A DNA stretch of 63,860 nucleotides, counting the filler, from Hausera hauseri (taxonomy: Eukaryota), in assembly GCA_046269625.1 (NCBI GenBank). It is 12 parts of 12 records of this genome, joined end to end, with 100 filler letters (N's around TTAATTAATTAA, not from the genome) between each part and the next. Parts side by side here need not be neighbours in the genome. Positions count along the whole stretch, not along the records: positions 30,350 to 35,035 come from JBJURY010475576.1; 11 more parts are not named here. One strand, written 5' to 3'. The translations under genes and the position numbers were made by a program. Below are positions 6,351 through 61,439 of this stretch, one piece after another. Every line of letters starts with the position of its first letter. Positions within the stretch are counted from its first letter, which is position 1. The notes below the pieces were generated by a model. The model was given only the letters and a program-made list of their open reading frames with translations. It made no database searches and was not told where the DNA came from.

Positions 6351-6688
6351 TGAGGAGTATAGAGAGGTGTGTAGTAGCTGCGCCGTGGCATTGAGTAGAT
6401 CCTTAATGGTCGTTGTGTTGATTGTTATTGAAGATAAAGAAGTAGAGCTTCAGAGAAGCAATTTCAGGAGAATGGTAAAATGCAAAATGAGCTTGTGCGG
6501 TTTGCTTCCGTGTTAACAAGAGATATTGGCGTGCAGTCGGGATAGCGGTGGCAAGTGATGATTGCAGTAAAGGAGTATCCAAAGATATTAAACTGAAAAA
6601 CATCTTAAAGTAAAAAATGGTGTGAGTTATGAAGGGTTTGTAAATGAGAAGAACATGGCCGCACCGGTGGGCATAAATCAATAAAAAA

Positions 6689-29712: not shown

Positions 29713-30249
29713 ATGGAACAAATTTCATTCACCACAAGATATTATTCTACTAAATTGGGCACGAAGAAAGACCTGACAAGTGAGAAAATAAAAGAAATCA
29801 AGACATTAATTAAAGAAAGGAGATACTCCACAAGTGAGATAGCGAAAAAGTGTGGTGTCAGCAACTATTTAATAGCAAAGGTTGGTAAACTTATAAATGA
29901 TAAGAAGCTATTCTATGATCGAAAGGGTTCCTGTGGTCGAAAGAGAAAAATGAGTTCTGTTGACATTAGAAGCTTGTTGCGGAGTGTTAAAAAGTCTTCT
30001 CGTACTACTGTCTCCAAACTATGAAATGAGTTGTCTCTATCTGAAGTTTATGTCAGCCGAATAACTGTGTGACGCCGAATTAAAGAGGCCAAATGCAAAT
30101 CCGTTAAACCAAGATTTGCTCCGAAGCTAACTAAGGCAATAAAAGTAGCTCGCCTGAAATTTTGAAAACAACATTGAGATTGGACATTTGCTGAATGGTC
30201 CAAAGTTGCTTTTTCGGATGAGTCTCTGTTTGAATGCAGTGAATCCAGG
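29713..30249 (+). mobile_element. Second Tc1-like transposase, N-terminal half, decayed
   Basis: HTH region (SEIAKKCGVS), GRKRK linker and WSKVAFSDES first catalytic Asp; cut by the contig end. Confidence 0.8.
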
Positions 30250-30349
30250 NNNNNNNNNNNNNNNNNNNNNNNNNNNNNNNNNNNNNNNNNNNNTTAATTA
30301 ATTAANNNNNNNNNNNNNNNNNNNNNNNNNNNNNNNNNNNNNNNNNNNN
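30250..30349. other. Artificial contig linker
   Basis: N44-TTAATTAATTAA-N44. Confidence 0.99.
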
Positions 30350-31850
30350 GTGACGGATCACAAAGCAGTTACAACACTAAAAGGACGAGCTAATAACCCA
30401 ACATGCAGATTAAACCGTTGGATCGACGAAATTTCACGATATAATATTGAATTTCAATACAAACCGAATAACAAGCACGTTGACGCTGATGCACTGTCAA
30501 GGCTAAAAACAAAAACGAGTGCAATCATTACATTAAAGAGACCACAACTTGAACAGCTGATTGAACGACAAAGAACCCTAATATCGGACAAGACGCTTAG
30601 AATGACGGCTGAACAGACTAAAGATACAGTTATTCAGCAGATTATCGAGTTCGTACAAGACAAAAAGATACCGAAAGGACGACATGTGAAAAAGCATCTA
30701 CAGAAGCACGGACATAAATATCATGTATTGGATCAAAATAATATTTTGTATTACAAGCGTAAAGGGAAAAGACTAATTGTACTTATGGCCGAACATGATT
30801 CATATTTAGCCGGACACATGTCTTGGAAGAAGACATTAGAAAGGATATTAAATAAATACTATTGGCCAAGCATCTATATTAATGTAAAGAATTGGGTAGG
30901 AGCATGGGAAGTCTGCGCGACAAAACAAAATAAGACGAAAGGCTACGTAGCAGAATTAAAACTTACAAGTGTACCAGACAGGCCTATGCAAGCCGTGTCT
31001 ATGGACATAGTAAAACCGTTACCAAAAAAACTCACAAGAATAACAGATATATCTTAACATGTGTAGATCAACTCTCACACTTTGTTGAATTGGTGGCACT
31101 GTTAAATCAAAAGGCAGAAACTCTAGCTGACGCAGTAGTTAGGAAAATTATTTGCAGATATTGACCACCAGAACAAATTTTAACGGATAGAGGAAGAAAC
31201 TTTACGAGCGAACTATTTGAAAAAATTACTAAAATATTTGAAATCGAACGTTTAACTACTACCGCGTATCACCCTCATGTAATGAAATGGTCGCGCAGAT
31301 GAACGCAACAGTTATTCGGATATTATCAACAGTAGTGGCAAAAGACCAAACGGATTGGGACTAATTCCTAGAAGTAACACAATTCGCAATCAATACGACA
31401 CCATATCCAGCGACAGGGTTTACACCATTCTTTATGATGTAAGGACGAGAAGCAATCTTACCCCCAGATTTAGACATGACACCCTACGAAAAGAACCTCG
31501 AGGATCTGGAGCAAAACTTTGTTGAAGTTTTGCGGACAAGACTGCAAAAATGTTGGGAAGTTGCAAAAACATTTTCACTTGAATATCAGGAACAAATAAA
31601 AAAACAATATGATAAAAAGACTAAGCCTCATGATCTGCAGAAGGGAAATTGGGTTTATATACATTACCCAGTCGCGAAGAAAGGTACCTCCTCGAAATTA
31701 ACACGTACCGGTAGAGGACCTTATGAAATCATCCGCACCACGCCGACCACGGTCTATGTTAATAAAAATGGTAAAGAGGAAGTCGTATTGATTCAAAGAG
31801 TAGTTAAAACAGATATAAGGCCAGCTAAACACTACAATCTAAGATCATGA
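30350..31850 (+). pseudogene. pol: Ty3/Gypsy pol, RNase H end plus integrase
   Basis: TDHKA, RLNRW, H.DADALSR, HDSYLAGH, YYWP, MDIVKPLP, LTDRGRNFTSELF, TAYHP, GPY, HYNLRS. Confidence 0.92.
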
Positions 31851-33292
31851 GAAAATAAAACTTCGTCGATCGTCACTAAACCAGTATCTTATGCACAGAT
31901 AATAGTAGCCTTATCACTGATTGCTCTCCTGGCGCCTGGGACTAATGCTCAATGGTGGGTAGATTAAACTTCGTTGAACGATATATATGGAATCAAGAAA
32001 AGCGGATTAAAACCTTCACCGCCAAAAGAAGAAACTTCCGAACACAAATCGGACAAAAAAGCTGAAAAATTTTTATGAGCAATAGAATTAGATTATTTTT
32101 CGTCAGAAGCACCATGAGTCGGATTTAAGTTATTAGGACCATATAAACAGCGAATTCAAATAATACTCCATGACTTGTTAAGCCAAGCCGAGTCCGAGTA
32201 CCATTTCGAACCGAACATGATACTAGTTGCTGTAACGTAGAGTACGGACACTCTTACACCCTCAGCTATCGTTCAAATTTGCCAAATTGTAATCATGTAC
32301 AAGCTGAAACAAAGCTGAATGCACGTTTAATTATACCACGAACTTATGGAGACTACCTTGATATAGAGCTGGAAGACATGCTCCAATCCAATGATCCATT
32401 AAAACCGATGCTAGAGGAAAATATAGCCAGCATAACGGAAAATCCGAAGGACAACTGTGTTTAAATAAATACAAAAGTGCGATTAATTAACGGTCGAGTA
32501 ATCACAGTTCAGTTCGTAAAGGAGAACAAAGCAGCTCCGGACCAACAATACTGCCAAATTGACGTCGAACGACCGAAAAGATGTTGCAAGTTACCTCAGA
32601 AATATAAATATAGGATTCAATTAGACTTATATAAAGTTCCACTAAACCAGTCGAGTATTTATTTAGGAAGTTACCAGTTTGGAAATCCAATCGCGCAAGT
32701 TTCGCAGAAGATAACGAGTAGAATTACAAAAACAAAGACTGCCACTCCGATATCCACCAAAATCATCATAACGAGTGGATTATCTCAAAAGGATCTAGAA
32801 ATGATTCCTATAAAATATTGGACACAACAGCGTGAAATAACGTTCATTGGGGAAGAGACCCTTAACTACATTGTAGAAATAAGCTGCCGAACATTACACA
32901 ATAATCAGAAAGTAACATTGGTTAAAGGTAGCTATCGAACCAAATGCACCGGTCTGAAACTCAAAACGGACTATATAATACAAATGAGTGCAGAGAGCAA
33001 ACAAAGTAGAACGTTCGCGGTACGGATTGTAAATGAGATTGTCGTAACAAAACCACTGATTGATGAGAAAACTGAGGATGAAACTACGACTACCGCTAAA
33101 ATGAGAAATTTAAGTAAATGGACAACTTTGTCATTGACACCGATTATTGGAACGTCAGTATTTTCTCTCATAATTTTTATCGCGTTTTGTCGATTGATTA
33201 CCAAACATTTCTGTATTAAGCGCCATAAAATCACTGAGAGGGAATTAAGGATGATGGTACCACAGAGCGTAATCAATGATGGAATAACCTGA
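31851..33292 (+). pseudogene. env-position type I membrane protein: signal peptide, three FN3-like repeats, TM helix
   Basis: In the pol frame: IIVALSLIALLAPGTNA|QWW. Three (L/V)-x5-Y tyrosine-corner motifs; TM IIGTSVFSLIIFIAFC; short tail. Confidence 0.6.
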
Positions 33293-33394
33293 CAACTACA
33301 GATCGGGTTATTCCACCATCAAACAAAGAATTGGTTCACTTTTAGAACAATACGTTGTTTTAGGATTGACCCTTATTTTGTATTTCCTTTCAGA

Positions 33395-35020
33395 ATGGTA
33401 AGTATGATCAGCCGAATTAGTGTCGGCAATTTCCTACAAGAACACGCGACAGTATTTATACCAAAATCAAGATCCATCTACCGACGCATAACCGAAGTCC
33501 TCCAAGCAGAAACTTCAATTAAATTTTCAAAAGTGACCGAGATTTCAAATGGCCTAAAAGGTATAACAGAAGAAAATCGAACCATATACCTTTACGCGAT
33601 GCGTGAAAATAATCAAGCAGGAGCCTACTCACTAAAGGACTAATTCCAAAACTAAATAGTAAAACTAAAGATGTATACATATACCTAGCCGATGAAGAAC
33701 TATATTACAGAATAGAAGATCAACCATGAAACTCCAGTAAAGGGCATCAATACCGATTTAGTACGTTCAGGATAAACAGACAAGATTTAGAAAGTATCAA
33801 CTATGGTCTAGAATTCAGAATAGCAGCCATTCCTGTTAAACTTATGTTCAAAATAACCTACGGAGAAAACTGCAACTTAGGTTTGCCAGTTCTAGAATTC
33901 GAACAAACCCCAATCGAGGCAGAAAAGGACGAAAACCGTCAGTCATATAGGCTAGTCAAGGATGGCCGTAACATAAGGATTATAGCAATAAATTGTGGTA
34001 GAGGAGATGACGGATATGGAATACCCATCGAAATATCTGTTAAAGAAAGAGATGGTATCGAAATCTATTCAACGATCATAAACCCCCGGAAACATGTCCA
34101 AGAGTCGTTTGCAGAAGTGACTGGTTTGAAAAGAGGCCAGCTCATAAAAGGAAAAGATATCCAACAGGTCCGTTCAGAATTAGACCATTGTCTGTTAACA
34201 GGATACAACGTGAAACGGGAGATTGAGCTATTAGGGATATCCGATGCAAACATTGCTAGACTTAGGGAAATAGCCACTCACTCAATAGTCCAAGAACGAA
34301 TGGAGAAAACCGTACAAGGAAGAAATCGGCCAACCGCATCAGAAGCTTTTTTCAAACAATGGTCGAAGCCATGAGAAATGAATCAAATAAAATTCCAAAG
34401 CTCCTAACGGCCAGTCAACGTTCTAAATATCTACAATAAATTTATAAGTTATTAAAGTAGGAACATGAATGGGCCCCCGGAGGCCCTATATACAATTTAC
34501 GTAGTTTCCTGAAACCCGAACAAATAGACGTCATATATAGAAAAAACATCAAGCCCTACTCCCCGACAAGAACAGTCCAACCAACAGATAAACATAGTGT
34601 CATGATTACAGTACAGGAACCTATGGAAGAACAACAAGAAAATAAAACGGAATTAAGGACAAATGAAGAAGAAGACAAGACGTTAGAGGGAACATCAAAG
34701 CCTCCGCAAGAAAACAAAGAAGAACCAAGGCCAGAAACGATAATTAAGAAACCAAAGTTAGAAGAGAAATACCAGTCCAGGAAAACACTATCTATTTATA
34801 ACTATCTATTCAAGAAATAAGAGGATGAGGAACAAAAAGTGGAAAACCAACAAAACAGGCCAAGTACCTCACAGGAGATAGAACCTCTAAAAAAGGGAAT
34901 TAGAAGTCCCATAATAACCGAAATTAATGCCCTGATAGGAAAGAGAATGAAAGGGAATGTACATTGCAGAACAGCTCAAGAATGCTGGTAAATACCGAAT
35001 ATTATAGTACAAAGATAATG
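33395..35020 (+). pseudogene. Extra ORF with inactive DEDD (REX4/RNase T-like) exonuclease fold and acidic tail
   Basis: IIAINCG...IEISV...G.EIYSTIINP...VTGL...LTGYNVKREIELL follows the DEDDh pattern with catalytic acids replaced. Frames 33395-33643, 33844-34374 and 34602-34820 can be joined. Confidence 0.6.
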
Positions 35021-35035
35021 AAGGAAGCCGTGTTC

Positions 35036-35303: not shown

Positions 35304-38300
35304 TCACAGTACCGATAGTTGTCTCAATTCCCTAATTAGGTCCGCATTATAGTCGATTTCCTTTATTTTTCTTGGCCTTCCGACCGGTCGTTTCGCTTTC
35401 ATCAGTGGTAAGGTTTCGTCTATATGAACTAAGTTCCTATCGTATTGCTGTTTGTCATCATCAGCCTGTAAGTATTCGAAATACATTTCGGCATCCTGAA
35501 TCCCCATAATTCTTCCGACGCAATGCTCTGCATGTGCTTTTCTCATGGCTTCTTCTTTGGTTTGCTCAGTGACGATTATTGCTATTATTCCCTATTAATC
35601 CCTACATCTGCCAAGGCTTCTAACTCGTCTAATATCCTGCCCTTGAAATTGAGTCCGTAATTAACTCCTTCCCTACCATCCTTATTCATTATCCGCTATT
35701 TTATATCCCCAACGGTGGTATGGGTAGTGCATTCAAATTCCTCGTCGTCCATCCCTTTGGATGATACTTTCACTTTAATTTCTGCTTCTGGTTTGTCTTT
35801 CAATAGTTTGGCGTATTATCTCACCAGGAGCTTGGGTACAGCGCTGTATATGGTGTTTTCCCTGGATAGCTCGGTCAAGATTGGAATCAATTTCCTTAAC
35901 GTACCTTTACTTATGTTTATTTTCAATATACTGCTTAGTTCCTTTCCGCTAACGTGGAATCAAATAGCATTTGTACGTCGAATTTCGTCTTCTGAGTACC
36001 AATAGGCGACTCATAAATTTGTATTGGAATTCTTTGGCTTTGCTGGTTTAAACCTTGGAGATATTCAACCTCTCAGCATTGTTATGCGGGTCCGGTAACT
36101 CTTAGTTTACTAGTGCGGCGTGACCAACTTGGACTCTTTCGCTCAGTTCTCTTATCTGTGGTTGTAATATTTTCATTATGGATATCCTAAATCTATTTCC
36201 GTTTTCGCAAGCTTCTTGTATCATTTTTATTAACCGGCACATTTCTTCTGGTGGTATCAAGGCTTTCTCTTAATAGTTAGTTATTTCTGCAATTCTATCT
36301 CTTTGCCATCTTTGTATAAAGTCCATTTTCTCATTAATTTTAGATTCCGTAAGGGAATACTTGTTCTTATAAATTTCTGCCTCCCTCAGTAATTAGTTTA
36401 GCTCACGTTGTCTTTTTCGGAGCGTAACCGGGTTTCTTTCACCAGACGGATTCGATCCTTTAGTCGTCTGGCTACTACTTCGTCAATTTCTGCCACTTCC
36501 GTTAACAGTAGGATCAATTTGTGCATCTGATTCAATACTTTGGCGTCCGGATCTATCGCGTCCATCAGCATGCCTATGAACTTGGCTTCGTTGGATGTCA
36601 GCTGAAGGTCCTTTCCAATTTCCGTTAGTTCGGTATGGCAATATAGGTCGAAACCTGGTGTTCATCCTGCTGGATTCTGTAAATATTGTAGTGATTGCGC
36701 CAGAGCAATCCGGTGATCGTTACATACCTCTAATGTTTCTATTTCCTGTGCTGAGATTTCCTTTAACGGTTTCTGTATTAAGTTTTGTATTCCTTCACAA
36801 AGGATGTTTACTAAACTTCGCTGAAGATCACTTAGCTTGATTCTTTTTCTGTTGAATTCCTTCCTTTCTATCATACTATATTTTTCTGTTAGTGTTGTTC
36901 GATTTTGATCCTTGCTCATAAATTCAAGTTTCCGGAATGATTCGAATTTAATTCGCAATTTTGCTTCATCTTCCATCGTACCGATGCCTAGTAACATTTC
37001 CCCCAATTGGTGTCTCATTATAGGCTCAACCATAGCGAATTCTTTTAGTCTTTTATTTATTATCCCTGATATGGAAGGCAGCAAATCTATCCACTTTCTT
37101 ATTTGTTTGGATGTTGCCGGTTTAATATAGATTGTTTTGTCTAATGTGTCAAGAGCTTCTTTATTTCGTGATCTGGCCCTCGTGGAAATTCTATGATATG
37201 CTTTATGTAGTTGAATTCTTCCTTATACTCATGTAATTCGGGAAGACAAGTACGTATTTTTCTCTGTGCTTCTGCTTTTTCAGGGTGGACTATGCCGATC
37301 CTTAAGTCGTTGATTTTGGTTCGCATTTCCTTTTCTCTTTCAATGCGTATTTTTAAATCGGGGTATTGGCGAAGGCTATCCTTTATTAAGCTGCACATTG
37401 CTATTAAAGGAGAAATATTGATTTGGTCTATACCCAAGATGGACATAAATCAGTTCATACACTGGCTCATTATGGAGATGAGAAATTATCCCTTTTCGAT
37501 CTCATAAATCAATCCTTCTAAATTACGTCTTATGCGTTTCAGTTTTGGGTTGTCCTTCAGTGCGTTTAATAGTCTTTGCGCTTGATCAACCTGGTAGAGA
37601 AACAGCTCATTTCTATTTTACCACATTTTCGTAAAATCAATCCCACTCTTTACCCAAAGTACTAATTTATTTTGCCAACTTCTTATCAAGTCTTGCAGCG
37701 TTTCTTGGTGTTCGTAAGGTGTGTTATCTCCCTCTTTGTGAGGATCGGGTTTAAGCTTTTTATATAACTTTTCTATGAATTGTTGTTCTTTTCAGGAGAT
37801 ATCCAACTGTTTGCTCGTCTGTTGGAGTTTTTGCAGGCTCTCATGTAACCTTCAGGAATCATTCACTGTGTCTTTTATCTTAATTAGTTCGTTTGCATTT
37901 TTCCAAGATTTTCTAATCTTCCAAACTTAATAGGTTTTTCCCCTTCTGGTTCCTCCTCACTACGTGGTAATGAAAATATTTTATTAATTTCATAGATATT
38001 CGAAACATTCGTTGTTTCGGGAACGCTTTGAGTCATAACCGGAGTATTTAACTCCGTTTCATCTATTAAAATGATGATGAAGTCTTCCTCTTTTTCTAAG
38101 TCCTTTTAATAGGGGATCGGCAACTAGTTCCCTACCTTCTCCTAAGTGAAGGACTTCTACCTCTATTTTTTGTTATTTTGAGTATTAGTGGACCAGTGAA
38201 TTTTCTCTGAATCTCGTCTGTTATTTTGTCCTTATTTTGAGACGCGATATCGGTATCTGCGTCCAAGTCTACACTTGGAGACGTAGTTGGCTTCCCCTCT

Positions 38301-39306
38301 TCCGCTACTTGATTTAGGTTTTTCTTCCTGGCCATGTTAGTATTCTTAGGTGCTATAGCATTTTCGTACTCCGTTTTTGGTTCTCTTAATCCATGATAAA
38401 CCTCCATTAGCTGCAACTTTTCTTTATAGTTTTTCATGGCCTTGATTATTTGTGGATTATTAGATTCGCCCATATTGCTTACATACCTTCGTAAATCCTG
38501 CATCTCGATAATTATGCTTATATCACCTCGTTTTCCATAGATGCCTTCCAAATTATCCTTTATCGTGCTAGCTTTACTGGTCTCTGAGAATGACACGTTT
38601 CGTGGATTAGGATATGATCTAGCTATATGTCCTTCCTTACCGCATGAATAACATATCAGATTCCCGTCTCGGCCGATTTTTTGTCTCCCGTCTTCGTTCA
38701 CTGGTGATCTGGATCTGCCTGTTATTTTGGTTTGAATTGGTTGAACTTGCTAATCGATTCCACTATTTCCATTTTCGAAACTTCGATTATCTATATACCA
38801 ATTCTTGTTGCTTAAGTCATTATTTTGGTTCCTATCCGAAATATAACCTGTTTTATTGTAGGAATTGTATGTGTTCTGATTATCACTAAAGTTCCTATTA
38901 TTATATCTTGTGCTGCGATTAGTGGCATTTTGAGCTCTATTCTCATAGCATCGACTCTTATTATTATTATTAAATCATTTATTGTTTCGGTTTCTATCCT
39001 GATTTTCGCGATCGTTATTTCGGTCATATCTATCACCCTGTCTGGCGTATTTATTTAGTGCCATTTTTAAGTTCTGAGTTAGCTGTAATGCAGCCTTAAA
39101 ATTGTCTGGTCGAGCTAAAATTAGTTGCTTAACTAAGTCTCTGGACCATATACAATTTATCCATTGAGTTGTCACCATGACATCTAAATTTGGCGGGCTG
39201 GCCTTTTCTGCCGCTTCGCGTTTCGCGTCTGTCTTTGCCTTCGTTGCATTAGCTATCCCTAACGTACTTACGTAACTATTCGCTAGCTTTTTTACTGCGA
39301 ATGCAA
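35304..39306 (-). pseudogene. gag: Very long Gypsy-type Gag (capsid C-terminus, R/D/N-rich region, zinc knuckle, helical region, ubiquitin-like domain, AT-hook)
   Basis: QWINCI...RPDNFKAALQL, ICYSCGKEGHIARS; coding-like continuity through stops and frameshifts to 35304. UBL at 35779-35571; KRPVGRPRK. Confidence 0.65.
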
Positions 39307-39406: not shown

Positions 39407-40250
39407 ATGTAATTTCGTCTTATGTACCCTTGTTGACCGCACACATAGGATATTATGGGTTTTCTTTCCAGACAATTTCTGTTAATATGTCCTTCTTTCC
39501 CGCAACCAAAACATCTTGGTACGTGTTGGAGATTGCATGTCCGGCTTTTATGCCCGTCTTTCTTGCATGACCAGCATTTCATCATCCTCTTTGCATGCGT
39601 ATTGTGCAGTTTGAAATCCCTTCTTTCCTCTCTTGGTTTGGCAAATTTGTGCACTACCACATCCCGATAACTCCATCGACCATCTTTAGTGTATTCTCTT
39701 ACTTAATTTATCTCTTCCGTCTTAGTTGCCATTTCGTGAACTTTCTGTATTTTCGCTTTAATTTGTTTTACGTTTTTTTCGTCACTGCGGTAGATTTCTT
39801 TTCTCATCTCTGGATTGTCACAACGGTGGATCATCAGTTCCTCTGTTAGAGATTCCGCAGTTATTTTGTGGCTGAGGATGCCCTTCACCAGCTGTTCGAT
39901 TTTGTTGTAGGAGGCGGCCGGTTCGGCCCATTCATTCTGTAGTCCAGTGCTTCCCGCAGATCTCCGCACAGCGTTGTGAGTTTTTCAAAGGCTTTTCTCA
40001 ACCAATTTTGATAAACTCTCGCCTTCTGATTCACAAGCTGGTATTTTTCCTGTTCTTCGTCCGCCAACAGGCACAGGACCGCGGTTTCCCGATCCTACTC
40101 CTACATCTTTATGAAGTCGAAGTATCTCTCGCATTTTCCAATAAAGGTTGCCACGTTGTCACATTTTTAGAATTTTTTTGGCATCAAATTCTTCTCGAAG
40201 AAGTCTCTTCAAGCGTGGTTTGCCATGTTAGTAGATCGCGTTTCTACCAT
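39407..40250 (-). pseudogene. gag: Gypsy gag with three CCHC zinc knuckles (third degenerate)
   Basis: MVETRS start at 40250; CWSCKKDGHKSRTC, CFGCGKEGHINRNC, YVCGQQGYIRRNY. Confidence 0.8.
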
Positions 40251-40275
40251 TCCGATCTCAACGTCATTCGATGAT

Positions 40276-40457
40276 TGTATGATTGAACTCTGCATAAGAA
40301 ATTTATTACAAAAGATTTGTATAACAATTATCTCCTTCACTCATTAAATGATTTTTCTTTTCATCTTTTTTGAATTTCCTGACTTTATATAGGCTGTTCA
40401 TTGATTTAACTTTAAATTGAATTTAAACGTTAATATTCGCTTAAATTCCTCCTCACA
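40276..40457 (-). repeat. Probable 5' LTR of the preceding Gypsy element
   Basis: TG...CA ends with internal TATATAA and AATAAA, just upstream of the gag ATG. Confidence 0.55.
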
Positions 40458-41930
40458 GGGGAAAAATGGGGTTCTCCCTCACCCCGGGGGGAGGTAATCG
40501 ACAAAGGAATTTTCACATGTGCCAATTGATAGTGTATGCGGAGCACAATCGATCGGTAGTGTGCCAGACGACGGTGCCGCTAGGCACCGTTTCTAAGCAC
40601 ATTTTTGCACATTTGACAAATCGATCGCTTCACAGCACAGTATTCATCGAATCAATCGGGGCAAAGTGCTAGTCGATAGTGCACATCAGTGACCATCGAT
40701 GAGTGCATTGTACAGGTGTGCAGAAATAAATAATATCGGATTTCCGATAATTCCAGTATTGATGATTACGGCACCGCAACGGGTGCAATCGGTATCACAC
40801 ATGATGAACTGTGCCAATATGCAGTTAGAATTTAAATATACTGATTAATTCTCGAATAATTTCCAACTGAGGAAAAACTCGTATATGCCTTTCCGCTATA
40901 AAATAAAAATCGATAATATCGATCCGCGGCAAGCAGTTGTACGTAGTACACACTGTGAACTACCGATATGGAAATGCTCAAGGTGAAGGTACCTTGGATA
41001 CTGTTGCCAAGGCACTTTTTCTCTTTTTACATATTGGTCACTGGGCAGCGTAGGATTGATTGAATCGATCGGGGTTAAGTGCATGTGGATAGAGCACATC
41101 GAGATGCACCTTGATATACACTATGCAGATGCGCAGCACATGTGCAAGTGTGCAAAAATCAATAATATCGGATTTCCGATATTTCCAATATTGATGATTC
41201 GGACATGTGACCGGATGGGATCGATTGGAAACAAGGTGCAGTATATAAATGTGCAGTTAGAATTTAAATTTATCGATTAGATTTCGAATAATATCGATGC
41301 AAAGTGCAACTGAGAGAGAACCCGCATATGTTTTTAGGCCCTAAGGTAGGAAAATACGATATTATAATTAGCGGGGATAGATAGGAAATCGACTATGGCG
41401 ATCTCGAATCTCGAGTTGGATATACAAAATTCAAAAAATCTTTGGCCCAATTATCGAATATCGAACTATTCGAAAAATCTAACAGCGGAAGTCGATTCCT
41501 CATATATGAAAGCCCCCTTATGCATAAAAATTATTCCATGAAAATGTACTACATAAATATATAATCATTATTTCGAATTAAGCAAAATGTGTTTTTAAAG
41601 CCCAATGAAACGAAAATCAATAAATCTATAAGCGGGACGGGATAGGAAGTCATGTGGGTAGAATTTGAATCTTGTGTTAGATATTTAAATTCGAGCTTTC
41701 AAGTCAAATACTTTGCTATTCGAACTAGAATATTCGATCAAGCATGCATTATTCGAAGAATTTAATGACGTTATTCGATTCCCCATATAGGAAAACCTTA
41801 AATTTGGCGCCGTCTTCTATTTAATTTAATTCATGCAATAAAACAAAAAGCACATTAAACTGATCAATAAGCGAGGCAGTACATGGTGATATGGCAAAAA
41901 ATTTCATTATTTCCAAAACCACTTCAACGA
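40458..41930 (+). repeat. Terminal (TIR-like) non-coding region with about 430-nt and 260-nt internal tandem units and hairpins
   Basis: AATAATATCGGATTTCCGATA...GCAGTTAGAATTTAAA recurs at about 40729 and 41161; AGCGGG..GATAGGAA recurs at about 41370 and 41631. Confidence 0.75.
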
Positions 41931-44900
41931 ATGGCGAGTTTTTTAATTGTGCGCCTCAAAATAATTGGTTGATTTTTAGATGTGCAAACTTCACAGCGAA
42001 TGTTTGTCTCAAATCAGCAAGCCTGAAAATTGCCACAGTATTATGAAAAAGTACTTTGGCCATCTATACAACAGGGTTCAGTATTATATATTAACTACAT
42101 GTAAAGTAGTGTGCCAAACCAATTATGAAGACTTTGACAATGTACATAAACAGCACTTGATTTCCTTCACCAAGTCGAAAAAACAAATATGCAGTACCAA
42201 TATGCCAATAACGACTTTCGTGCCAAAGGAAAATCAAAGATGCAGTTCATATGTGTATTGCACATGTATAATACACAACCCTCAGAATTGCCACAATACC
42301 ATGAGGAGCTATTATGGACACAAATTCAATAGGATCACTTATTATATTTGCTCAGGATGTGAGGCTGTATGTGATGAAGAATACATACAGTTTTATAATG
42401 ATCACAAACATCATTTGACTGACTTCACATAAAAGTCAAAGAAGATCATCTTTAATGAACATAAGCCAGTTGCACAGCCTGTAGTACAGCCAGATGCAGG
42501 GCTAAAACGCGCATCAGGCGCATCAGGCGTAGCGGCTCCAACAAAAAGTCAAAGACAGCGGCCAGTTGATGCTACAGTATTAAAGAGGAAATCTGCAAAT
42601 ATGTCATTGATGCAACTGGTTAAAGAACCATCAAGGAGTTCCTGGAGTACACAGAAGAAGAAACAGAGGGAGTTCTCTAGGACAACATAGTTGAGCTCGA
42701 GGCCATTAAGGCTAATATGAAATTGGAGGCCACATACATCAATGTTGATGACGAAGAGTTCAAAAGTGCCTTCAAGACCACAAGTAGACCCATTTTTGAA
42801 GCCACCAATATAGTAGAATGGTTGCATGAAGAGCATGCAAAGCTGAACCGTGAAGCCGATGACAGCCAGAGTAAGAAGAACGGATGGACTCTGGCAACCG
42901 TCAAGAGATTGCTTGTGTATGTTCACGAGTATTCTCCCATGAGGGGTAGTTCATATATCTAGCTTCCGGAATGGATCGCTAAAAAAGCATGTGTCAATGT
43001 CCATGAAAAAGACAACAAGTGTTTCATGTATGCCATTTTACGTAAACTCGTACGGGATCAAAAACATGCAGCAGTACTATGACTTCCAATGTATTAAGTT
43101 CCCTCCATCCTTAGATAAAATTAAGAATTTCAGCCGAATCAACAACATATCCATCAGCATCATTGGATTGGATGAGGAGGACAAATTCTATCCCTTGCAG
43201 ATATATGATACTGAATTGGAAGATCATATGGATCTGCTCCTATTAGACGATAGAGAAAAGAAACATTATGTTTGGATCAAGAACTTTAAGCGTCTAGTCA
43301 CATCCAAAATTACGAAACATAAGGAAAGAATCGAAATATGTAAACGATGCTTTTCCAATTTGAGTGGGGATTCAGCAGTGGATAAGCTTGCAGCGCACAA
43401 GATGTACTGCAGCAACAAATACTGTGTGAGGGCAGAATTTCCCAAGGAAGACTATATTGCATTCATGGAGTTCGAGAAGAAGATCAAGGTCCCAATATCT
43501 ATTGCAACTTTGAAGCTATTCGTCGGCCAATTCACAGCTGCACTGCCAGTCCTCAACATAGCGGCACAACGGCATACCAATATCATGAACTCTCATCGTA
43601 TTGCATGTATGCCAAAGGACTAGACAATGAATCATTTCTATTCAGGGTCCAGGCGCAGCAGCACATTTTATGAAACGACTTGAAGATATGGCTCATAGGC
43701 TTGAAAACATGCTTCAGCAGCATAAGGAAACATTGAGCATGTTGTGAAAACAAGCAGAAGAATGGCGCAAGGCAACAACATGTTACTTGTGCGACAAGTC
43801 CTTCATCAAGGAGAATCATAAAGTTAAGAATCACTGCCATTTTACAAGTGCACATCGAAGGGCTGCATGCAATAACTGCAATCTTCGCCGCAAAACATGC
43901 ACATATGTGCCTGTAGTGTTCCATAATCTCAGTGGCTATGATTTCCATTTCATAGTCCTAGAATTAGGCAACATTAATAATAATATAGATGTGATAACCA
44001 ACAGTGAGGAGAAATATATCGCCTTCACCAAGTATGTTGGGAAAATCAGACAGCTTCCGTTTCATGTCGTCTTCATTGGACAGTTTAACGAAGAACGTCC
44101 CTGCAAAAAAACTCAAGGAGACGAAGCGATTCTTTTCCATTACCTTTGACCTCGTTAAGAAGAAAGGCGTGTTTCCCTATGACTATATAACCTCATGGGA
44201 AACACTGGATGAGACTTCATTGCCGGCCAAGAAGGACGTTTACAATATCCTCTCTCACTGCGATATCTGTTATGCTGACTACCATCATGCCCAGAACGTC
44301 TGACATGCATTTCAATGCCGAACAATAGGACAATACAGCGACACATACATCAAGACGGACGTGCTGCTTCTGACAGATGTCTTTGAGAGTTTCAGAGATG
44401 TTACAATGAAGAACCATGCTTTGTATCCGGCTCATTTCTTTACGGCTCCAAGAATGAGCTAAGCAGCAATGCTGCGATATACGGGCATAATGCTGCAGAT
44501 CATTAAGGATTACGACATGATCCTTATGATCGTGGGAGGCATTAGAGGCGGAATATGCCAGGACATTCACCGGTATAGTGAGGCCAATAACAAGTATATG
44601 GCCGAATACTACTCAAGAAAAGAATCATCATATATATCATACCCGGATGCCAACAACTTGTATGGATGGATAATGGGCGCCCCATTGACATATGATAATT
44701 TCAAATGGGTCCAGAATCCCCAAAACATCCCTATATTGGACCTAGATCCCACTGGAGATACGGGATACATACTGGAGGTAGATATGGAATATCTGGAATT
44801 TATCCACGCAAAGCATCAACAGCTACCTTTCCTCCGTGAGAGCAGGCCTCCGCCCCATGGAAAGCAGAGAAAACTGCTATGTCATCTGGGTAATAGGGAG

Positions 44901-45581
44901 AGGTATGTAGTCCACTACATCAATCTCCAGCAGGCAGTTAGACATGGACTGCGTATTACCAAGATCCATAGAGCCCTCCAGTTCAGCCGCCCATGTGGCT
45001 GCAGTCATACATAGATCTCAATACGNNNNNNNNNNAACGACTTTGGGAAGGACCAGTTCAAGCTTTACAACAACCTGGTCTTAGGCAAGACCATGGAAAA
45101 TATCCGCAACAGGATCAACATTAAGCTAGTATGTGACTGGAAGCGGGCAAAGAAGCTTATTGCCAAGACTAACTTGCATAGCAGCACCATATATACTGAG
45201 AACTTGGTAGGAATCCATATGCTGAAAACAGAATTGGTATTCAACGAGCGCATATATGTGGGTATCGCAATCCTCGACCTGTCAAAGACCCTGATGTGTT
45301 ATTTCCACTACATTATGGTCCCCAAGTACAATTCCATGCATCTGATGTATATAGATACTGGCAGTTTTATCTATCAGATCAATACAGAGGATATTTATGA
45401 GTAATTTGCCAAATTGGCTTAACACATGGATATCTCGGACTATGCGAAGGATAATCCCAACTATTCAATTGCCAATAAGAAAGTCCTAGAGAAATTTAAA
45501 GACGAAATGAATGGGACAATACGATCGAGATTAGTGGCTCTCAGATCTAAAATGTATGTTGTACATGTATGTGGCCAAGGA
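41931..45581 (+). pseudogene. Protein-primed DNA polymerase B (tandem Cys/His domain, terminal-protein-like region, vOTU-like, exonuclease with EndoVII-like insert, polymerase)
   Basis: GSSYI.LP, DNKCF...HYVWIK, NHCHFT...CNNCNL, FHNLSGYD, KGVFPYDY, DANNLYG, KLYNN..LGKTMEN, YIDTGS, KFKDE, LRSKMY. 10-N scaffold gap at 45026-45035. Confidence 0.92.
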
Positions 45582-45681: not shown

Positions 45682-45896
45682 TCACTCAAGGAATGAATAT
45701 CCAGATTATATCCAGAAATGTTCCGTTCTCCTCTGTACTGGAGGATCTCATCTCAGTGCATGGACTCCGTAGTTCGGAGAGAACCTCCCTTCATGGTAGA
45801 TTTTAATTAGAATGTTCCTAGTGCAGCGGTCGCTAGATTTCTTCCTAATCAGGAGAATTAATTAACAGAACAACAAAAAGAAAAAAAGAGAGAAAA

Positions 45897-45979
45897 GGCT
45901 CACTCAGCTTGCAGTGAGATTCGAACCTTAGACCAACATCACCAGAGGTGGACACCATACCTCGAGACTACTCAGCCCC
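45897..45979 (-). ncRNA. tRNA-derived Pol III unit (SINE head or tRNA pseudogene)
   Basis: GGGGC start, A-box-like TAGTCTCGAGG, B-box GGTTCGAATC, then T-runs; cloverleaf incomplete. Confidence 0.5.
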
Positions 45980-46020
45980 GTGATCAATAATCAGCCTCTA
46001 AAAAGGATCCATTTACTAAC

Positions 46021-46092
46021 CTTCTGTAGTTGTCAGATTTATTGTTTTATTACAGTCTTCTGTAGTTGTCAGATTTATTGTTTTATTACAGT
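46021..46092. repeat. Perfect 36-bp tandem duplication (DCNKTINLTTTE x2)
   Basis: cttctgtagttgtcagatttattgttttattacagt occurs twice in tandem. Confidence 0.95.
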
Positions 46093-46386
46093 CAATGTCG
46101 TATCCACCTGCGTCTTGTATCTTAAACTGAATGGCGTACGATATTTTCGGTTGTAATCCAAAGACTGTAAAATTCATTGACTTTGACAGGAAGATTGTAT
46201 ATTCAAGCTTGGAAACGGACGCCATGCATGTGAAAGACGAGCTTTTTCTATTGGTACAGTTGCTGATGGGGTAGAGTGTCATCATGACTGAACTTCTGAC
46301 TTCACCAGGTTCTAAAGAGAGCGTCGTGGCATTATGTGACGCTGAGATTATCGTGGCATTAACCGGGCAACTTGGCAGCGCAGAAT
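46021..46386 (-). CDS. Fibronectin type III domain exon (phase 1-1) of a host cell-surface protein
   Basis: ttcAG|ATTCTGCG...GAAG|GTtagt, 366 nt; PSCPVNATI...FTVFGLQPKISYAIQF; many N-glycosylation sequons. Confidence 0.65.
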
Positions 46387-46542
46387 CTGAATTATTAAAA
46401 ACGAAATGATAAGCTTAGAGTTAAATGCACATTAAGTATAAGATTCAAAAACATTTAAATAGTTGACACATAATAAGAATATTCTATTTCTCATGACAGC
46501 ATACTTGTTTCTTCTAGCTTTTATCTCTATTTTAATTTTAGA

Positions 46543-48621
46543 ATGCTGTTTTCCAAATATTTCCAAATTACAAAACATTTCGTCAAACGTAACTTTATTC
46601 ATTTACCGGTCAGTATTTCAACCGATGTTCAACATGCAATATTCAACAAAAATCCAATTGTAGCTTTGGAGAGTGCCGTGATTACTCATGGGATGCCATG
46701 GCCAGAGAATTTCGAAATTGCAATGGAATTGCAAAGTATAATTTCATCAAAAGGTGCTACACCAGCAACAATCGGAGTGTTACATGGGAAATTAAAAGCC
46801 GGATTTTCTACACATGAACTGGAACTATTTTCCAAATCTGTAATAACTGGAAAACCACTAAAAGTATCACGACACAACATTTACAATCATAAGCAAATGG
46901 AATTTGGCGGTACTACGGTATCTGGTACAATGATTGTTTCCAGACTTATTGGAATAGATATTTTTGCTACTGGGGGAATTGGCGGTGTGCACAGAAACGT
47001 GGAAAAAACAATGGATATCAGTGCTGACTTACGGGAACTTGGAAGGTCCCAAATCTGTGTCGTTTCATCTGGTATTAAATCAATTCTGGACATTCAGAAA
47101 ACATTAGAATATTTGGAAACAGAAGGGGTTTATGTTTGTACTTTAGGATCGAAAGAATTTCCCGGTTTTTTCGTAAAGTCTAGCGGACTGGTATCTCCAA
47201 ATTCGATTTATTCATTGCAGTCGGCTGCCGAATTAATTCAAGAAATGAAGACCTTAAATATCCAATCAGGTATGTTATTGGCTGTTCCAATTCCGGATAG
47301 TTTGGAAAAAAATGGCGAGGTTCTTCAAAATTCAATTGATATAGCTTTGAAAGAAGTCTCAGAAAAGAAAATTTGTGGAGCGGCTGTAACGCCTTTTCTC
47401 TTAAATCGAGTAGTTGAATTAACAAATGGAAAATCACTGATACTGAACAAAAGTCTTCTAAAGCATAATTCTGCAGTTGCAGCAGATATCGCCATTGAAT
47501 TAAGCAAAGTAACTAAGGAAATCTATACAGAAAAATTACGGGAAAAAACATTTGCAGTTGTTGGAGCTAGTATTTTAGACACGAATTCAAAGCTTGAGGA
47601 TCAATCGGTAACTTCCTTACAGACGATTGTCAAAGGAGGAACCTATGAATGTAATTCAATTGAAACATGTGGAGGAGTAGGACGAAACATGGCCGAAACG
47701 TTTTCAAAACTGGGCGAGAACTGTCTATTTTATTCAGTAATTGGAAATGACATCAAAGCAATTTATCTCATTGAAAATTCAAAACCCTTGGATTTTCAAT
47801 TTGTATTACGGGATAATGAACATGGTACATCAAATTGTACAGTAATAATGCTTGCTAATAATGATGTTCTTCTCCACACAGGCAATCTGAAATCATGCAG
47901 TAAAATAACACCAACCTACCTCGACACGAATATGGCAAAAGTACTCGACAAAATTGATATAATTGCCATGGATTTGAATGTGAATAAAAGTACATTGAAA
48001 TACATTATCGAAATGGCCAAATCAAGAAATATCAAGACAATACTGGAACCAACCGATGTACGACTAGTTCATAAAGCGGTGGACGTGATTCTGGAACTAT
48101 CACCGACTATTAACGGACCAATAGATATTATTTCTCCGAATATTTACGAATTCGTCGAAGTCATTAATTTGTTGGGTAAAAACAAAACGAATCTCATTTT
48201 GGAAAACGTCGAAACCCACCCGGATGATGTGTTTGCACAAATAAAAAGTACGTTTTCACAAACAAATCTGTTAGACATTATTCCCATTTGGATCATAAAA
48301 TTCAATCGATTTGGGATCATTTTCGTGTCAAAGGATGAATCGTTTTGGTTACGGCAATCGTCGTCTCTAATACAAAACAACATGATAGTGAGTGCATCTG
48401 GTGCCGGTGACTGTGCACTCTCCTGTGCAGTCTATTTGCGATATAGACAGAATCTATCGTGGGAAGAAAGCATTGCCGGGAGTATAAGAATTGCTCTGGA
48501 ATCGCTACAAAGTTCTAAAACGGTACCAGAGTCGATTAAGCCAGAAAACTATTCTAAACCACAAATTTTAGAGTGGATTCGAGATTCTTACAATAAGAAT
48601 GTGATAATTCTCCATAAATAG
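46543..48621 (+). CDS. Bifunctional pseudouridine-5'-phosphate glycosidase (PsuG/IndA) - pseudouridine kinase (PfkB) fusion, 692 aa
   Basis: VALESAVITHGMPWPEN, TTVSGTM, FATGGIGGVHR, DISADLRELG; PfkB motifs GGVGRN and SGAGDC. Intact and intronless. Confidence 0.95.
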   Translation: MLFSKYFQITKHFVKRNFIHLPVSISTDVQHAIFNKNPIVALESAVITHGMPWPENFEIAMELQSIISSKGATPATIGVLHGKLKAGFSTHELELFSKSVITGKPLKVSRHNIYNHKQMEFGGTTVSGTMIVSRLIGIDIFATGGIGGVHRNVEKTMDISADLRELGRSQICVVSSGIKSILDIQKTLEYLETEGVYVCTLGSKEFPGFFVKSSGLVSPNSIYSLQSAAELIQEMKTLNIQSGMLLAVPIPDSLEKNGEVLQNSIDIALKEVSEKKICGAAVTPFLLNRVVELTNGKSLILNKSLLKHNSAVAADIAIELSKVTKEIYTEKLREKTFAVVGASILDTNSKLEDQSVTSLQTIVKGGTYECNSIETCGGVGRNMAETFSKLGENCLFYSVIGNDIKAIYLIENSKPLDFQFVLRDNEHGTSNCTVIMLANNDVLLHTGNLKSCSKITPTYLDTNMAKVLDKIDIIAMDLNVNKSTLKYIIEMAKSRNIKTILEPTDVRLVHKAVDVILELSPTINGPIDIISPNIYEFVEVINLLGKNKTNLILENVETHPDDVFAQIKSTFSQTNLLDIIPIWIIKFNRFGIIFVSKDESFWLRQSSSLIQNNMIVSASGAGDCALSCAVYLRYRQNLSWEESIAGSIRIALESLQSSKTVPESIKPENYSKPQILEWIRDSYNKNVIILHK

Positions 48622-49373
48622 ACTTACGTTTTGTTTCAAATTACTCCTCATTTGTAAAGTAATATTATTGTTTGAATTTGTGTATGTATCTTAAGAATAC
48701 TGCCATGCAGAATTTTGTAGATATCACAAAGAAAAACCTTAAGCAAATTAGAAAAAACCATACATTAATTTATAATTTGGAATGTACATTATACTGTCAC
48801 CCTATGGGACACATTTTTGTTCATTACATGGAGCCCTCCATAGAGAAAACGTCTGTTATATGGCACGTTGTTAATATTGTAAAGGTTATTCAAATTATAG
48901 ACTAAATCGTATAGACTGAAGTAAAAGTCACCATTATTTAAATTTACAAAAATGATTAAAATGTTGTAATATCGTATTGTTAAAGATTTTTGTGCATTTA
49001 CTGGTAACAGCCAATTAAATTTGATAGATAATCCTGATTAGTTCTCTAGGTAATCATCGCTTCCGTTTAACTACTTTTCACAGTTTTAATACATTATAAA
49101 ACTGTGCTGATCCAGACTTTGTCACATGACCAGTTCTAACTCACAAGGAAACGAATTTTGGTGTAAATTTGGATTTTTAATAAATAGTCAGAGAGATGTG
49201 CAAAATATAATGCGGATTAATAATGTGAAAAAACGTTTGCCAAGAAAGCTAAAGTAATACATTTGGAGCCTTTAAATATAACAGCATTTCGTACTAGTTC
49301 AAATCTCCACTATGTTTAAGAATTTTGAACTTTGGCAAAATTTTCCTTATTTTTATCTAGGTATATGAAATTA

Positions 49374-51898
49374 AGAGGAAAATATACCGTCTTCCTCACG
49401 CACCTGGGAGGATAAATCGATAAATCGATATTGGACATGTGTTAGTCGACAGTGCACTCGCTGCACTATCGGTCGGCGCACGTGCATGGCGACGGTGCCT
49501 TTAGGCACCGTTGCCATGGCACATTTGCACTTTGCACATATTGATCGATCGAGGTAAAGTGCTCATCGATAATTCATATCAGTGCACATAGATTTATGCA
49601 CAATGCACTTAAGGAGCACATGTGCAAATGGGTGCAAATGGGTGCAAATTAATAATATCGGTTTTCCAATAATTCCAATATTGATGATTAGCACAAGGCA
49701 CCGCAGGCAATCGATTGGAAAAACGGTGCACTATACAAGCGTGCAATTAGAATTTAAATCCATCGAATGGTTTTCGAATAATATTGGTTTGAAAATTTAG
49801 TCAGGGAGAAAGTACGTAGGTTTTTAGACTCTAAGGAAGCAAAATTCGACAATACATTAAGCGGAGACAGATAGGAAACCATGTATGGAGATTTTAAATA
49901 TAACATCAGATATTCGAATTCGAAAAAAGTTTTGACCGAATATCGAACTAAGCACTATTCTAAACATCTGATTACATCATTCGATTTCCTTTGTTCTAAA
50001 ATCTATGAAAAATTTAAATTATTCAATGAAGATGTACTATATAGTTATAAAATCATTAAATCGAATTAAGCAAAATGCACATTTTATGCTCAATGAAGCA
50101 GAAATGGAAAAATGTTTAAGCGAGTTTGGATAAGAAACATTATATTCATAATCCGAATCCGATGTCACATATTCGAATACAAGTTTCCAAATCGAATATT
50201 TAGCTATTGGAACTCGAAAACTCGGTCAAGCATATATTGTTTGAAGAATCTGACCTATAATGAAATCGAAATTGGCACTGTGCAGCACTGTTTTCAATTG
50301 AAAAGATCAAATTTGGTGGCAAGTTCATGTAATTGATGCAATAAAACAAACTGTTCTAGAATATTCGAAAATCAAATTTTTAAAATCAGTAAAATCAAAA
50401 TTTGAATTTAAAAAATCTATAAACGCCGCAATGTGCGTTGACATAGCTGTATATTTTATTATTTCAGAAATCACTTCCAAGAATGGTGAGTATTTTAATT
50501 GTGCTTCTCAAATAATTGATCTATTTTTTAGACTTGCAAATTATACAAAGATGTTATATTTCAGTCACCTTTCAACAGGACTGAATACTATCTATGTCCT
50601 ACAAGCGAGATAGGGTGCCTAACTTGTTATGAGGACTTCTACAATGTCCATAAACAACATATGACTTCCTTTACCAAGTCGAAGAAACAAATATTCAATA
50701 CGAATATGCCTATGATATCTTACATTTCTCAGAAAATTTAAAATAGCAGTTCATACATGTATTGCACATCTGCAATACACAATCTGCAGAACTGTCATTA
50801 TACAATGCAGCGTTACTGTGGACACACATTTAACAGGATCGAATATTATATTTGTCCAGGATGTGAAACTGTATGTGATGCAGAATACATGCAGTTTCAT
50901 GAAGATCACGGCTCATTTAAGAGAATTCAAATGAAAGTCCAAGAAGACCATCTTCAATAAGCACCATAATCTTGTTGCTGCAGCAGCACAACAGGTTCCA
51001 AATACAGTACAGCCAATTCCAGGTGCAGTGCAACTAGTTCCACACACATGATTAAAACGTACAGCGGCATACTGGTATTAGACTGCAGATCTTGAAGGAT
51101 TATGATATGATCCTCATGGTAAAGAGAGGTATTAGAGATGAAGTATGTCAGACTATGCACCGGTATAGTGAAGCCAGTAACAAGTACACGGCCGAATAAG
51201 ATCCATCCAAGGCATCCTCATATATTACCTACTTGGATGCCAACATAAAGCCTTAAGATGACTTTAAATGGGTAGATCATTTAGAAGACTTAGCAATACA
51301 ATATGTAGATCCCAATGGAGATACAATCTACATAATGGAGTGGATGTTTAATATCCATATAATACGCATACAAAGCATGGACAGCTGCCTTTCCTCTCTG
51401 ATAGCAAGCAGCCACCTAATGATAAACATAGAAAGCTACTCTGCCATATGGAGAAAAGGGAAAATATGTAACCCGCTATATCAATCTCCGGTAAGCGATA
51501 AAGAACGGACTCTGCATCACAAAAATCGATTGGGCCCTGCAGTTTAGCCAGTGCATGTGGTTGAAACCTTACATGAACCTCAATACACAGCTGCGGGCCA
51601 GTGCCAAGAACGATTTCGAGAAAGATCAGCTTAAGTTATACAACAGCAGCGTTTTTGGCAAGAGTGGGAAAATATCCGGAATAGGATCAACATCGAGTTT
51701 GTATGTGAGTAATGCGAGCCAAAAAACTCATAACCAAGACGAACTTCCGCCGCAGTATAGAGACCTGGGTCCGGATCAATATGCTGAAGACATCTTTCAA
51801 ATTCAATAAGCCATAATATGTGTATGTCGATACTAGACTTGTCAAAGACCATGAAGTACCACTTTCACAACCACATTCAAGACTCAACAGCTTATGTA
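49374..51898 (+). mobile_element. pPolB element copy 2, internally deleted
   Basis: Homologous terminus 49374-50482, ATG-intron, Cys/His domain (50757-50960), then a jump to polymerase motifs (YLDAN, KLYNSSVFGK, ILDLSKT). Confidence 0.82.
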
Positions 51899-54800: not shown

Positions 54801-54992
54801 GTGAAGCCGATGAGAGCCAGGATAAGAGCGGATGGGCTCTGGCAACCATCAAGAGAGTGCTTATATATGTACACAGATACTCCCACATGCGAGGCAGTTC
54901 ATATATACAGCTTCCGGAATGGATTCGGCAGAAAAATGCTTGTATCAATGTCCATAATAATGACAACAAGTGCTTCATGTATGCCATTTTAT
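51899..54992 (+). mobile_element. pPolB element copy 3 (terminus plus 5' part of the polB gene)
   Basis: Begins AGTAGG; terminus 51899-53854; Cys/His repeats; SGWALATI...RGSSYIQLPEWIRQKNACINVHNNDNKCFMYAIL; cut by the contig end. Confidence 0.87.
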
Positions 54993-57817: not shown

Positions 57818-58450
57818 TCATTCATACATTTTGCATTCGTTCATACATATAAAATAAATATTGCTAGTTGTTAAACGTGCGAGTGCCATGTCAAATGTCG
57901 GTCTGTCGTTGGTCTTAAAATTGTGTTCTGTTACATGTTCTATACCGGCCCTCTCAGTGCGTAGGTGGTGCAGTCGCTTTGGCATATTCTTGAGTTCTTG
58001 ATTTAGTGGAATAATCATTGGTATTATTATCGAATCTTTTACTGTCATGCGATTTACTTTTACTCCACTTGATTTTTTTAAATCTACATTCGTCTGAAGC
58101 TTATTTTCTATTGATTCACTTTCTATTTTACTCGCATACATTGTGCAGGCTGTAGCAAAGACGTCATATCTTGTGTTGGTACAACAAAGTGGAAAGTTAC
58201 TGATATAAAATGAAAAAAGCAAGGACCCGAGGATACAACCTAGAGACACACCGGATTTTATGGTGGTGCTCTCAGATATCCAAAAATTATACCAACGATT
58301 TGCACGTGTTTGTCTGAAAGAAATGATTAAAAATATGTTACCAATATGGCCCGGATTAAAACTTTCAAATGTTTGCAAAAGGACGCCATCGTCAGCCATA
58401 TCGAAGGCCTTCATCAAGTCAATAAGCACAATACCACACATCTTAGCGTG
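57818..58450 (-). mobile_element. CR1/L2-like LINE reverse transcriptase fragment
   Basis: IDLMKAFD, SGVSLGCILGSLLFSFYISN (degenerate GVPQGS motif), degenerate FADD. Confidence 0.75.
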
Positions 58451-58454
58451 GTCT

Positions 58455-61394: not shown

Positions 61395-61439
61395 ACCTGT
61401 GTTTGACTGTGGTTTTGCTGAACACCGTGACAGTATCCT

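Follow-up and report, generated by a model that had tools for sequence, protein, structure and literature searches.

A putative pseudo-nuclease gene behind the env-like ORF of a gypsy-type element in Hausera hauseri, with candidate splice and readthrough routes

In bdelloid rotifers, the LTR retrotransposons Juno and Vesta carry a third open reading frame, ORF3, that encodes a DEDDy exonuclease, and the accessible text on these elements gives its catalytic residues as intact (DEED) (PMC5408684). ORFs downstream of env are, according to the available pages of another source, known in general (PMC6431247). Proteins of the same superfamily that have given up cutting are described in host genomes, where Maelstrom and EXD1 (PMC5408684) and the PXL domain of PML (PMC13659232) are presented as pseudo-exonucleases that bind nucleic acid. 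On the viral side, the arenavirus nucleoprotein is described as having a DEDDh domain used against host defence (PMC7968707).

A further set of precedents concerns stop codons that ribosomes pass. Readthrough in retroelements is described at the pol/env junction of SIRE1 and at the gag/pol junctions of Tca2 and MuLV (PMC2194720), and the readthrough context of TMV is given as UAG CAA UUA CAG AUU (PMC13517186, Table 1). In the accessible text of three sources, CAR YYA is the type I signal, which requires no structured RNA behind it and is active in mammals as well as in plants and yeast, with all three stops in the latter two (PMC13517186, PMC11166343, PMC2194720). The type is defined for UAG, and a review has it absent from animal viruses, yet working in mammals and with stops other than UAG (PMC13517186). 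In the ilarviruses, CP-RT is described as a structural protein extended by readthrough, with a zinc-binding motif domain, that suppresses RNA silencing (PMC11166343).

Here we present ORF3 of a gypsy-type element from Hausera hauseri, found in a window (the whole stretch of DNA that was analysed) of 63,860 nt, which consists of 12 short contigs with N linkers between them; the feature lies on the contig at 30350-35035. As in Juno and Vesta, the pol of a gypsy-like element is followed by an extra ORF, which here very probably descends from the DnaQ exonuclease superfamily, and the accessible account assumes a spliced message for the rotifer elements. The ORF3 described there is RNase D-like DEDDy and replaces env, whereas the one presented here follows an env-like gene, is without the Exo I acids, finds its best matches among DnaQ/REX-type enzymes, carries an additional domain at its N-terminus and has, in one of its relatives, a RING at the other end. 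We class it as a variant of the known DEDD ORF3 cargo and not with the active exonucleases, the rotifer DEDDy group or Maelstrom. Taken whole, our reading, which we hold with moderate confidence, is that ORF3 is the third gene of the element and encodes an RNA-binding pseudo-nuclease adaptor, made by both splicing and readthrough. In the literature searched, mostly without subscription papers, we found neither a cargo that joins a dead DEDD domain to a RING nor readthrough at the end of env into a further gene. An earlier sequence-only reading of the locus proposed a dead nuclease expressed from a spliced RNA; it is incomplete, leaving out the N-terminal domain, the RING on one relative and the readthrough route. 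The features are as follows.

30353..31850, + strand: 3' part of a gypsy-type pol, its frame broken by stops and frame changes
31851..33292, + strand: env-like ORF, broken, named from layout; stop TGA at 33290-33292
31884-31940, + strand: hydrophobic signal-like stretch, from hydropathy over 19 residues
33143-33199, + strand: membrane span, from hydropathy over 19 residues
33290..33304, + strand: stop with type I (CAR YYA) readthrough context, TGA CAA CTA CAG ATC, from the sequence
33293..33394, + strand: 34-codon spacer, open in the env-like/ORF3 frame, from translation
33366..33393, + strand: branch-point-like TTGAC, pyrimidine tract and CAG acceptor, from the sequence and its variation among copies
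33394..33403, + strand: A, ATG start and GTAAGT donor-like site, which would bound a 4-nt micro-exon
33395..33960, + strand: ORF3 N-terminal domain of about 180 residues, with one frame change and one stop, conserved in relatives
33961..34460, + strand: putative DEDD (DnaQ/REX-like) pseudo-exonuclease domain, from profile matches and motifs
33979-33999, + strand: AINCG within IIAINCG, Exo I
34201-34221, + strand: GYNVKRE, Exo II
34404-34424, + strand: LTASQRS, presumed Exo III
34461..35035, + strand: remainder of ORF3 as far as the contig reaches, charged and of low complexity

All three genes, gypsy-type pol, env-like ORF and ORF3, stand in this order on the + strand of one 4.7-kb contig, and all three are broken. 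Translation of the pol piece gives the end of the RNase H region, the integrase zinc finger, the core and the C-terminal domain in that order, and a Pfam profile search finds Integrase_H2C2 (E 7.6e-13) and MLVIN_C (E 0.0027) within it; integrase after RNase H in pol, in a multicopy element, is the Ty3/gypsy arrangement. That it is multicopy is indicated by contigs of two public runs at a likeness of at least 80%, 9419 in one and 910 in the other, which cover the stretch in 30 of 30 bins and point to a family found, by the run labels, in two organisms. Contigs from these runs bridge the end of the env-like ORF, the spacer and the start of ORF3. A host gene that happens to adjoin the element was considered for ORF3 and ruled out, as many diverged contigs cover it and it is bridged to the env-like end. 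The contig at 30350-35035 contains no LTR, its ends falling inside pol and inside ORF3, and the statement that none separates the membrane-protein gene from ORF3 on the same strand is borne out by the 102 nt that lie between the env-like stop and the ATG. The A-rich character attributed to the strand also holds, with an AT skew of +0.18 to +0.38 over 30001-35000.

Other parts of the window hold features of their own. An unbroken, intron-free ORF of 692 residues at 46543-48621 (+) is a fusion of a pseudouridine-5'-phosphate glycosidase-like part (Indigoidine_A) with a PfkB kinase, and 15065-16369 (-) is an Ataxin-2-like open frame with LsmAD and PAM2. Other retroelement pieces encode RNase H and an integrase zinc finger (2669-3547, -), a reverse transcriptase (57818-58468, -) and a zinc knuckle (38132-38749, -). 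An inverted repeat of 622 nt, 80% complementary, joins 4750-5371 to 6684-7305, and its region also matches 59735-61400 at about 80%; the contigs at 39407-45581 and 45682-54992 have several repeat segments in common, 66-80% alike.

The env-like ORF has a Cys-bearing ectodomain between its signal-like stretch and its membrane span (hydropathy 1.9 and 2.3 in a 19-residue window), and a tail of about 30 residues behind the span. Protein searches, word-based ones included, found no homologue of its 275-residue piece, and a Pfam search for envelope homology gave only DUF6345 (E 4.6e-05), under the family cut-off; because the homologue searches came up empty, the name rests on layout only. At the upstream end, over 31848-31967, a TGA closes the pol frame, which continues without a shift into the signal-like start; the env-like start piece lacks an ATG and is not preceded by a strong acceptor. 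Possibly pol and env form one frame or are joined through a second leaky stop, whose context is TGA GAA AAT, not CAR YYA. In run X1, a contig of depth 135.6 passes over 1046 nt within the env-like ORF, 31925-32972, and the ends of the skip are CT..AC, which is GT..AG on the minus strand.

ORF3 itself had been described as a decayed ORF of roughly 540 codons. Its decay is plain, with three frames (the changes lying near 33637-33643 and between 34327 and 34350) and seven in-frame stops, at 33727, 34437, 34458, 34818, 34989, 35016 and 35019; the length agrees as far as it goes, with 547 codons over 33395-35035, and is set by the end of the contig at 35035. A full HMMER search of 1,835,955,588 cluster representatives found two relatives, both open frames without stops and each on one contig: P0001, of 870 aa (45% identical, E 1.3e-38), and P0002, of 333 aa, which ends inside the nuclease-like domain (39% identical, E 1.1e-27). 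By tblastn, P0001 matches all three frame pieces of ORF3, from 33422 to 34631, the third piece being placed in this way. The N-terminal domain is 40% identical to P0001 and 44% to P0002 over 33413-33637, and between the two relatives it is as conserved (55% identical) as the nuclease-like part (57%); no Pfam family matches it above cut-off. P0001 consists of this domain, the nuclease-like domain, a charged linker and a further region that ends in a C3HC4 RING at 747-790 (PF00097, E 2.6e-07, 30.8 bits against a cut-off of 21). ORF3 is cut at about residue 580 of the 870, before the place of the RING, which is thus known from P0001 alone. The comparison covered the relatives at the level of their protein sequences. 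A word-based search with alignment returned P0001 and P0002 only, while one with a 214-residue piece found no relatives among longer proteins and also missed P0001. No ORF3 locus was found in viral contigs, metagenome contigs or phages. When P0002 was compared with viral contigs, four of eight candidate stretches passed tblastn as encoding a relative.

Two candidate routes into ORF3 are marked in about 100 bases in front of it. The first is a splice acceptor, TTATTTTGTATTTCCTTTCAG, which ends at 33393 as previously given and is followed by the ATG at 33395-33397 and GTAAGT at 33398-33403. The acceptor is the contig's only YYYYAG with at least 14 pyrimidines in the preceding 19 nt, and 33398 is its only GTRAGT, GTAAGT occurring 10 times in the whole + strand of 63,860 nt. 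Variation at the junction was surveyed in 518 and 63 contigs from the two runs over 33245-33445, with differences of at least 3% listed. In both runs, no such variant falls in 33392-33404, and the four in the acceptor region all keep the motif: TTGAC, 24 nt before the AG, varies within YTRAY only, the tract from C to T only, and CAG to TAG only. The second ATG, at 33404, is not kept across copies. The earlier claim of a candidate splice acceptor for ORF3 gains from the way copies keep branch, tract and AG. Both relatives have a Phe-rich run and VS at the upstream end (FLFLAKVS and FFFRLVS, against FPFRMVS in the window), which suggests what a pyrimidine tract, AG and GTAAGT would read as in translation. 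In all three proteins a Met stands 5 to 12 residues before the first conserved motif, as a separate mRNA would need, and this counts for a free protein. Splicing to 33393 thus probably gives free ORF3 protein, judging from these motifs; the donor-like GTAAGT 4 nt behind the acceptor may regulate the choice of site or bound a micro-exon, and being strong it could also splice ORF3 out.

The second route, missed by the sequence-only reading, begins at the stop of the env-like ORF. Past this TGA the frame stays open for 34 codons and runs into the ORF3 ATG; directly 3' of the stop lies CAR YYA with an open frame behind it, which is the type I signal with UGA as its stop, and the bases that follow agree with the TMV context at 10 of 12. 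CAR YYA stands behind 17 of the 6886 stop triplets of the window, and composition would lead one to expect about 1 in 340. Over 33245-33445 there are 22 variant rows of at least 3%, none of them an indel. The longest variant-free run, the 20 nt of 33283-33302, holds the stop and the motif, and the contig pile-up peaks there; its P of about 0.04 is post hoc, the run having been picked after the data were seen, and the mapping of contigs favours invariant stretches and so biases such runs. For the 9 nt of stop and CAR YYA, freedom from variants is not significant alone (P 0.26). No listed variant creates a stop in the spacer at 33293..33394, where variants at codon positions 1, 2 and 3 number 4, 5 and 7, without clear third-position bias; a spacer of this kind is open in 10% of shuffles, and a second frame of it is open as well. 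No stable RNA fold was found behind the stop (z -1.0). As in SIRE1, Tca2 and MuLV, in the accessible accounts, an in-frame stop lies between two ORFs, and as in TMV it is followed by CAR YYA; unlike in all four, the stop closes an env-like gene just past its membrane span and is followed by another gene, with an acceptor in the same spacer. Judged from the DNA, the signals for candidate readthrough of this stop are about as clear as those for the predicted splice, and we see an even chance that readthrough gives an Env-ORF3 protein with the pseudo-nuclease on the cytoplasmic side of the span. In run X1, a contig of depth 12.6 passes over 93 nt without changing the frame, going from the CAG after the stop (33301) to the ATG (33395) and losing the acceptor while retaining stop, CAR YYA and ATG; the skip ends in AT..GA, which resembles a deletion at a short repeat and not a splice.

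The alternative that survives best, though we think it unlikely, is that the pseudo-nuclease comes from a spliced (or trans-spliced) RNA only, CAR YYA and the open spacer being coincidental and the conserved stop block serving something else, for instance as an RNA-processing signal or, through CCTGAC..CAG, as a weak branch point with its acceptor further upstream, at 33301. It would account for an acceptor, branch point and ATG kept across copies, for the Met at the start of the domain in all three proteins, and for a spacer whose openness is matched by a tenth of shuffles and shows no codon-position bias; the accessible text on LTR elements also has their ORF3s typically coming from spliced messages (PMC5408684). 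It has to leave to chance a CAR YYA expected about once in 340 stops, ten of twelve bases in common with TMV, and the coincidence of stop, motif and frame with the longest variant-free run and the contig peak, and the CAG at 33299-33301 that it calls upon lacks a pyrimidine tract, with just 9 nt separating it from the putative branch A.

Conversely, ORF3 might be made as a readthrough tail of the env-like protein only, with acceptor and donor forming a micro-exon or recursive site through which ORF3 is spliced out or another gene beyond it is reached. The invariant GTAAGT, the only GTRAGT of the contig, fits such a role; so do the VS at the same place in both relatives, the Leu that P0002 has in place of the Met there, and the X1 contig that joins 33301 to 33395 in frame and without the acceptor. 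Both relatives have a Met of their own where the domain begins, however, the contig contains no second strong acceptor (it ends early), and an exon of 4 nt is hard for a spliceosome to define, so that we consider this very unlikely. We return to the reading in which both routes are used and turn to the protein itself.

That ORF3 contains a DEDD fold is suggested by matches that are individually weak and convergent, and that cover Exo I to just past Exo II only. A three-sequence profile matches, in the PDB, DnaQ (8h18, E 2.7e-4), PolC (2p1j, E 4.6e-4) and SDN1 (5z9x, E 2.1e-3). The P0001 stretch matches nine NCBIfam families, eight of them named DnaQ, PolC, DinG or 3'-5' exonuclease and one hypothetical (best E 0.0011), and in PHROGs the exonuclease phrog_192 is matched at E 3.4e-5. 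The neighbours in an atlas, which are leads only, are RNase_T clusters and the C-terminal domain of the arenavirus nucleoprotein, with scores of 0.84 to 0.92; the arenavirus exonuclease, an active enzyme, is the top neighbour (0.92, 141 of 256 features), with no match found at the level of an alignment. Pfam RNase_T gave no match at E 0.1 to 1. Against a profile of 32 bacterial DEDD sequences the three proteins scored 0.3 to 1.9 bits, where the best shuffles reached 4.5 to 5.2, and the alignment stopped short of Exo III; a profile-profile alignment with hhalign gave P 0.0077 and a probability of 5%. Two AlphaFold models had a pLDDT of 36 and 42, too poor to use, and the fold searches on the second (Foldseek without a hit at E 0.001 or less, VIA with a best Z of 4.1) are void given the poor model. 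The proposal of a pseudo-DEDD domain is thereby upheld by the convergence of the profile matches and by the loss of the Exo I acids in three of three proteins, and no structure backs it; we regard the fold as very probable from the sequence comparisons.

It had been claimed that the catalytic positions are non-acidic, and this holds at Exo I but is wrong for Exo II. Exo I reads IIAINCG in the window and IIAINTG and ILAVNLA in the relatives. In the SDN1 register its Asp falls on the Asn of AINCG, AINTG and AVNLA, in the DnaQ register, shifted by two, A stands on Asp and N on Glu, and whichever register is used, no acid occupies either Exo I place in the three proteins, two of them unbroken. At Exo II the catalytic Asp of SDN1 and DnaQ aligns with the Glu of GYNVKRE, which is acidic; P0001 has Met at this residue and P0002 ends before it. 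At Exo III, TASQRS is homologous by tblastn to SATKCS of P0001, and LTASQRS and LSATKCS carry neither the His/Tyr nor the Asp; no alignment to a known nuclease reached this motif, and its register is presumed from the motif pattern. Decay of this copy was considered as the origin of the Asn at Exo I and ruled out, both unbroken relatives having it. Shared as it is with unbroken relatives at 39-45% identity, the Exo I loss was inherited and did not arise by damage to this copy. In the DEDD superfamily, two-metal catalysis does not survive the loss of both Exo I residues, and, given the DEDD fold, the domain is very likely without nuclease activity, on the evidence of its motifs. The opposite view, that the domain is no DEDD derivative or is an active nuclease with a rearranged site that takes its acids from the stretch just past the Exo I strand (GDD, EDE, ENEE) and from the Glu at Exo II, draws on the poor models (pLDDT 36 and 42), the weak profile scores and the presence in all three proteins of acidic residues 3 to 5 positions beyond the Asn, and we hold it to be very improbable, as PDB, NCBIfam, PHROGs and the atlas all point to the same superfamily, the matching acidic patch of SDN1 (CEDG) comes after the catalytic DCE and does not supply the catalytic pair, and P0001 has Met at Exo II.

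How such a protein might act can be pictured from the known cases. In the mechanism we propose, a DEDD-fold protein descended from an RNA-trimming enzyme would have ceased to cut before the spread of the family. The free protein would come from a spliced RNA whose junction is at 33394, and readthrough on the env-like message would yield a minor form with ORF3 as an extended tail at the cytoplasmic face of the span. Through its dead nuclease the protein would bind RNA, by analogy with Maelstrom, EXD1 and the PML PXL domain, and the RING, where present, would ubiquitinate a host factor met on the bound RNA. Maelstrom, EXD1, the PML PXL domain and Exuperantia are, in the accessible descriptions, DEDD folds that bind nucleic acid without catalytic residues, as proposed for ORF3; they are host genes, whereas ORF3 is cargo of an element. 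Searches of Pfam and PDB, which have little reach from three sequences, gave no match to Maelstrom, Exuperantia or the PML PXL domain. PML, which carries a RING, joins it to its pseudo-exonuclease domain in the reverse order to P0001, where the RING is C-terminal. Only tentatively, and by analogy, do we suggest that RNA binding through the dead nuclease is coupled, where there is a RING, to the ubiquitin tagging of a host factor for silencing or antiviral defence. Among possible purposes we favour counter-silencing, with similar reserve. The ilarvirus CP-RT offers a functional model for reading ORF3 as an Env tail; in the available text it belongs to a plant RNA virus and has a short extension and no nuclease fold, unlike ORF3. 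The fullest version of this idea, which we think possible and on the doubtful side, is a TMV-type readthrough that adds to Env a tail of several hundred residues (N-terminal domain, dead DEDD domain and RING), while the free form comes from an acceptor within these same 100 bases, so that one anti-silencing or RNA-capturing module would exist both anchored in the membrane, possibly in particles, and in soluble form.

The use of the accessory genes of invertebrate LTR retroelements is almost entirely unknown. In this family, the inherited loss of catalytic residues in a conserved DEDD domain would point to selection on binding and not on cutting, and the RING on a relative suggests how that binding could be turned against a host factor.
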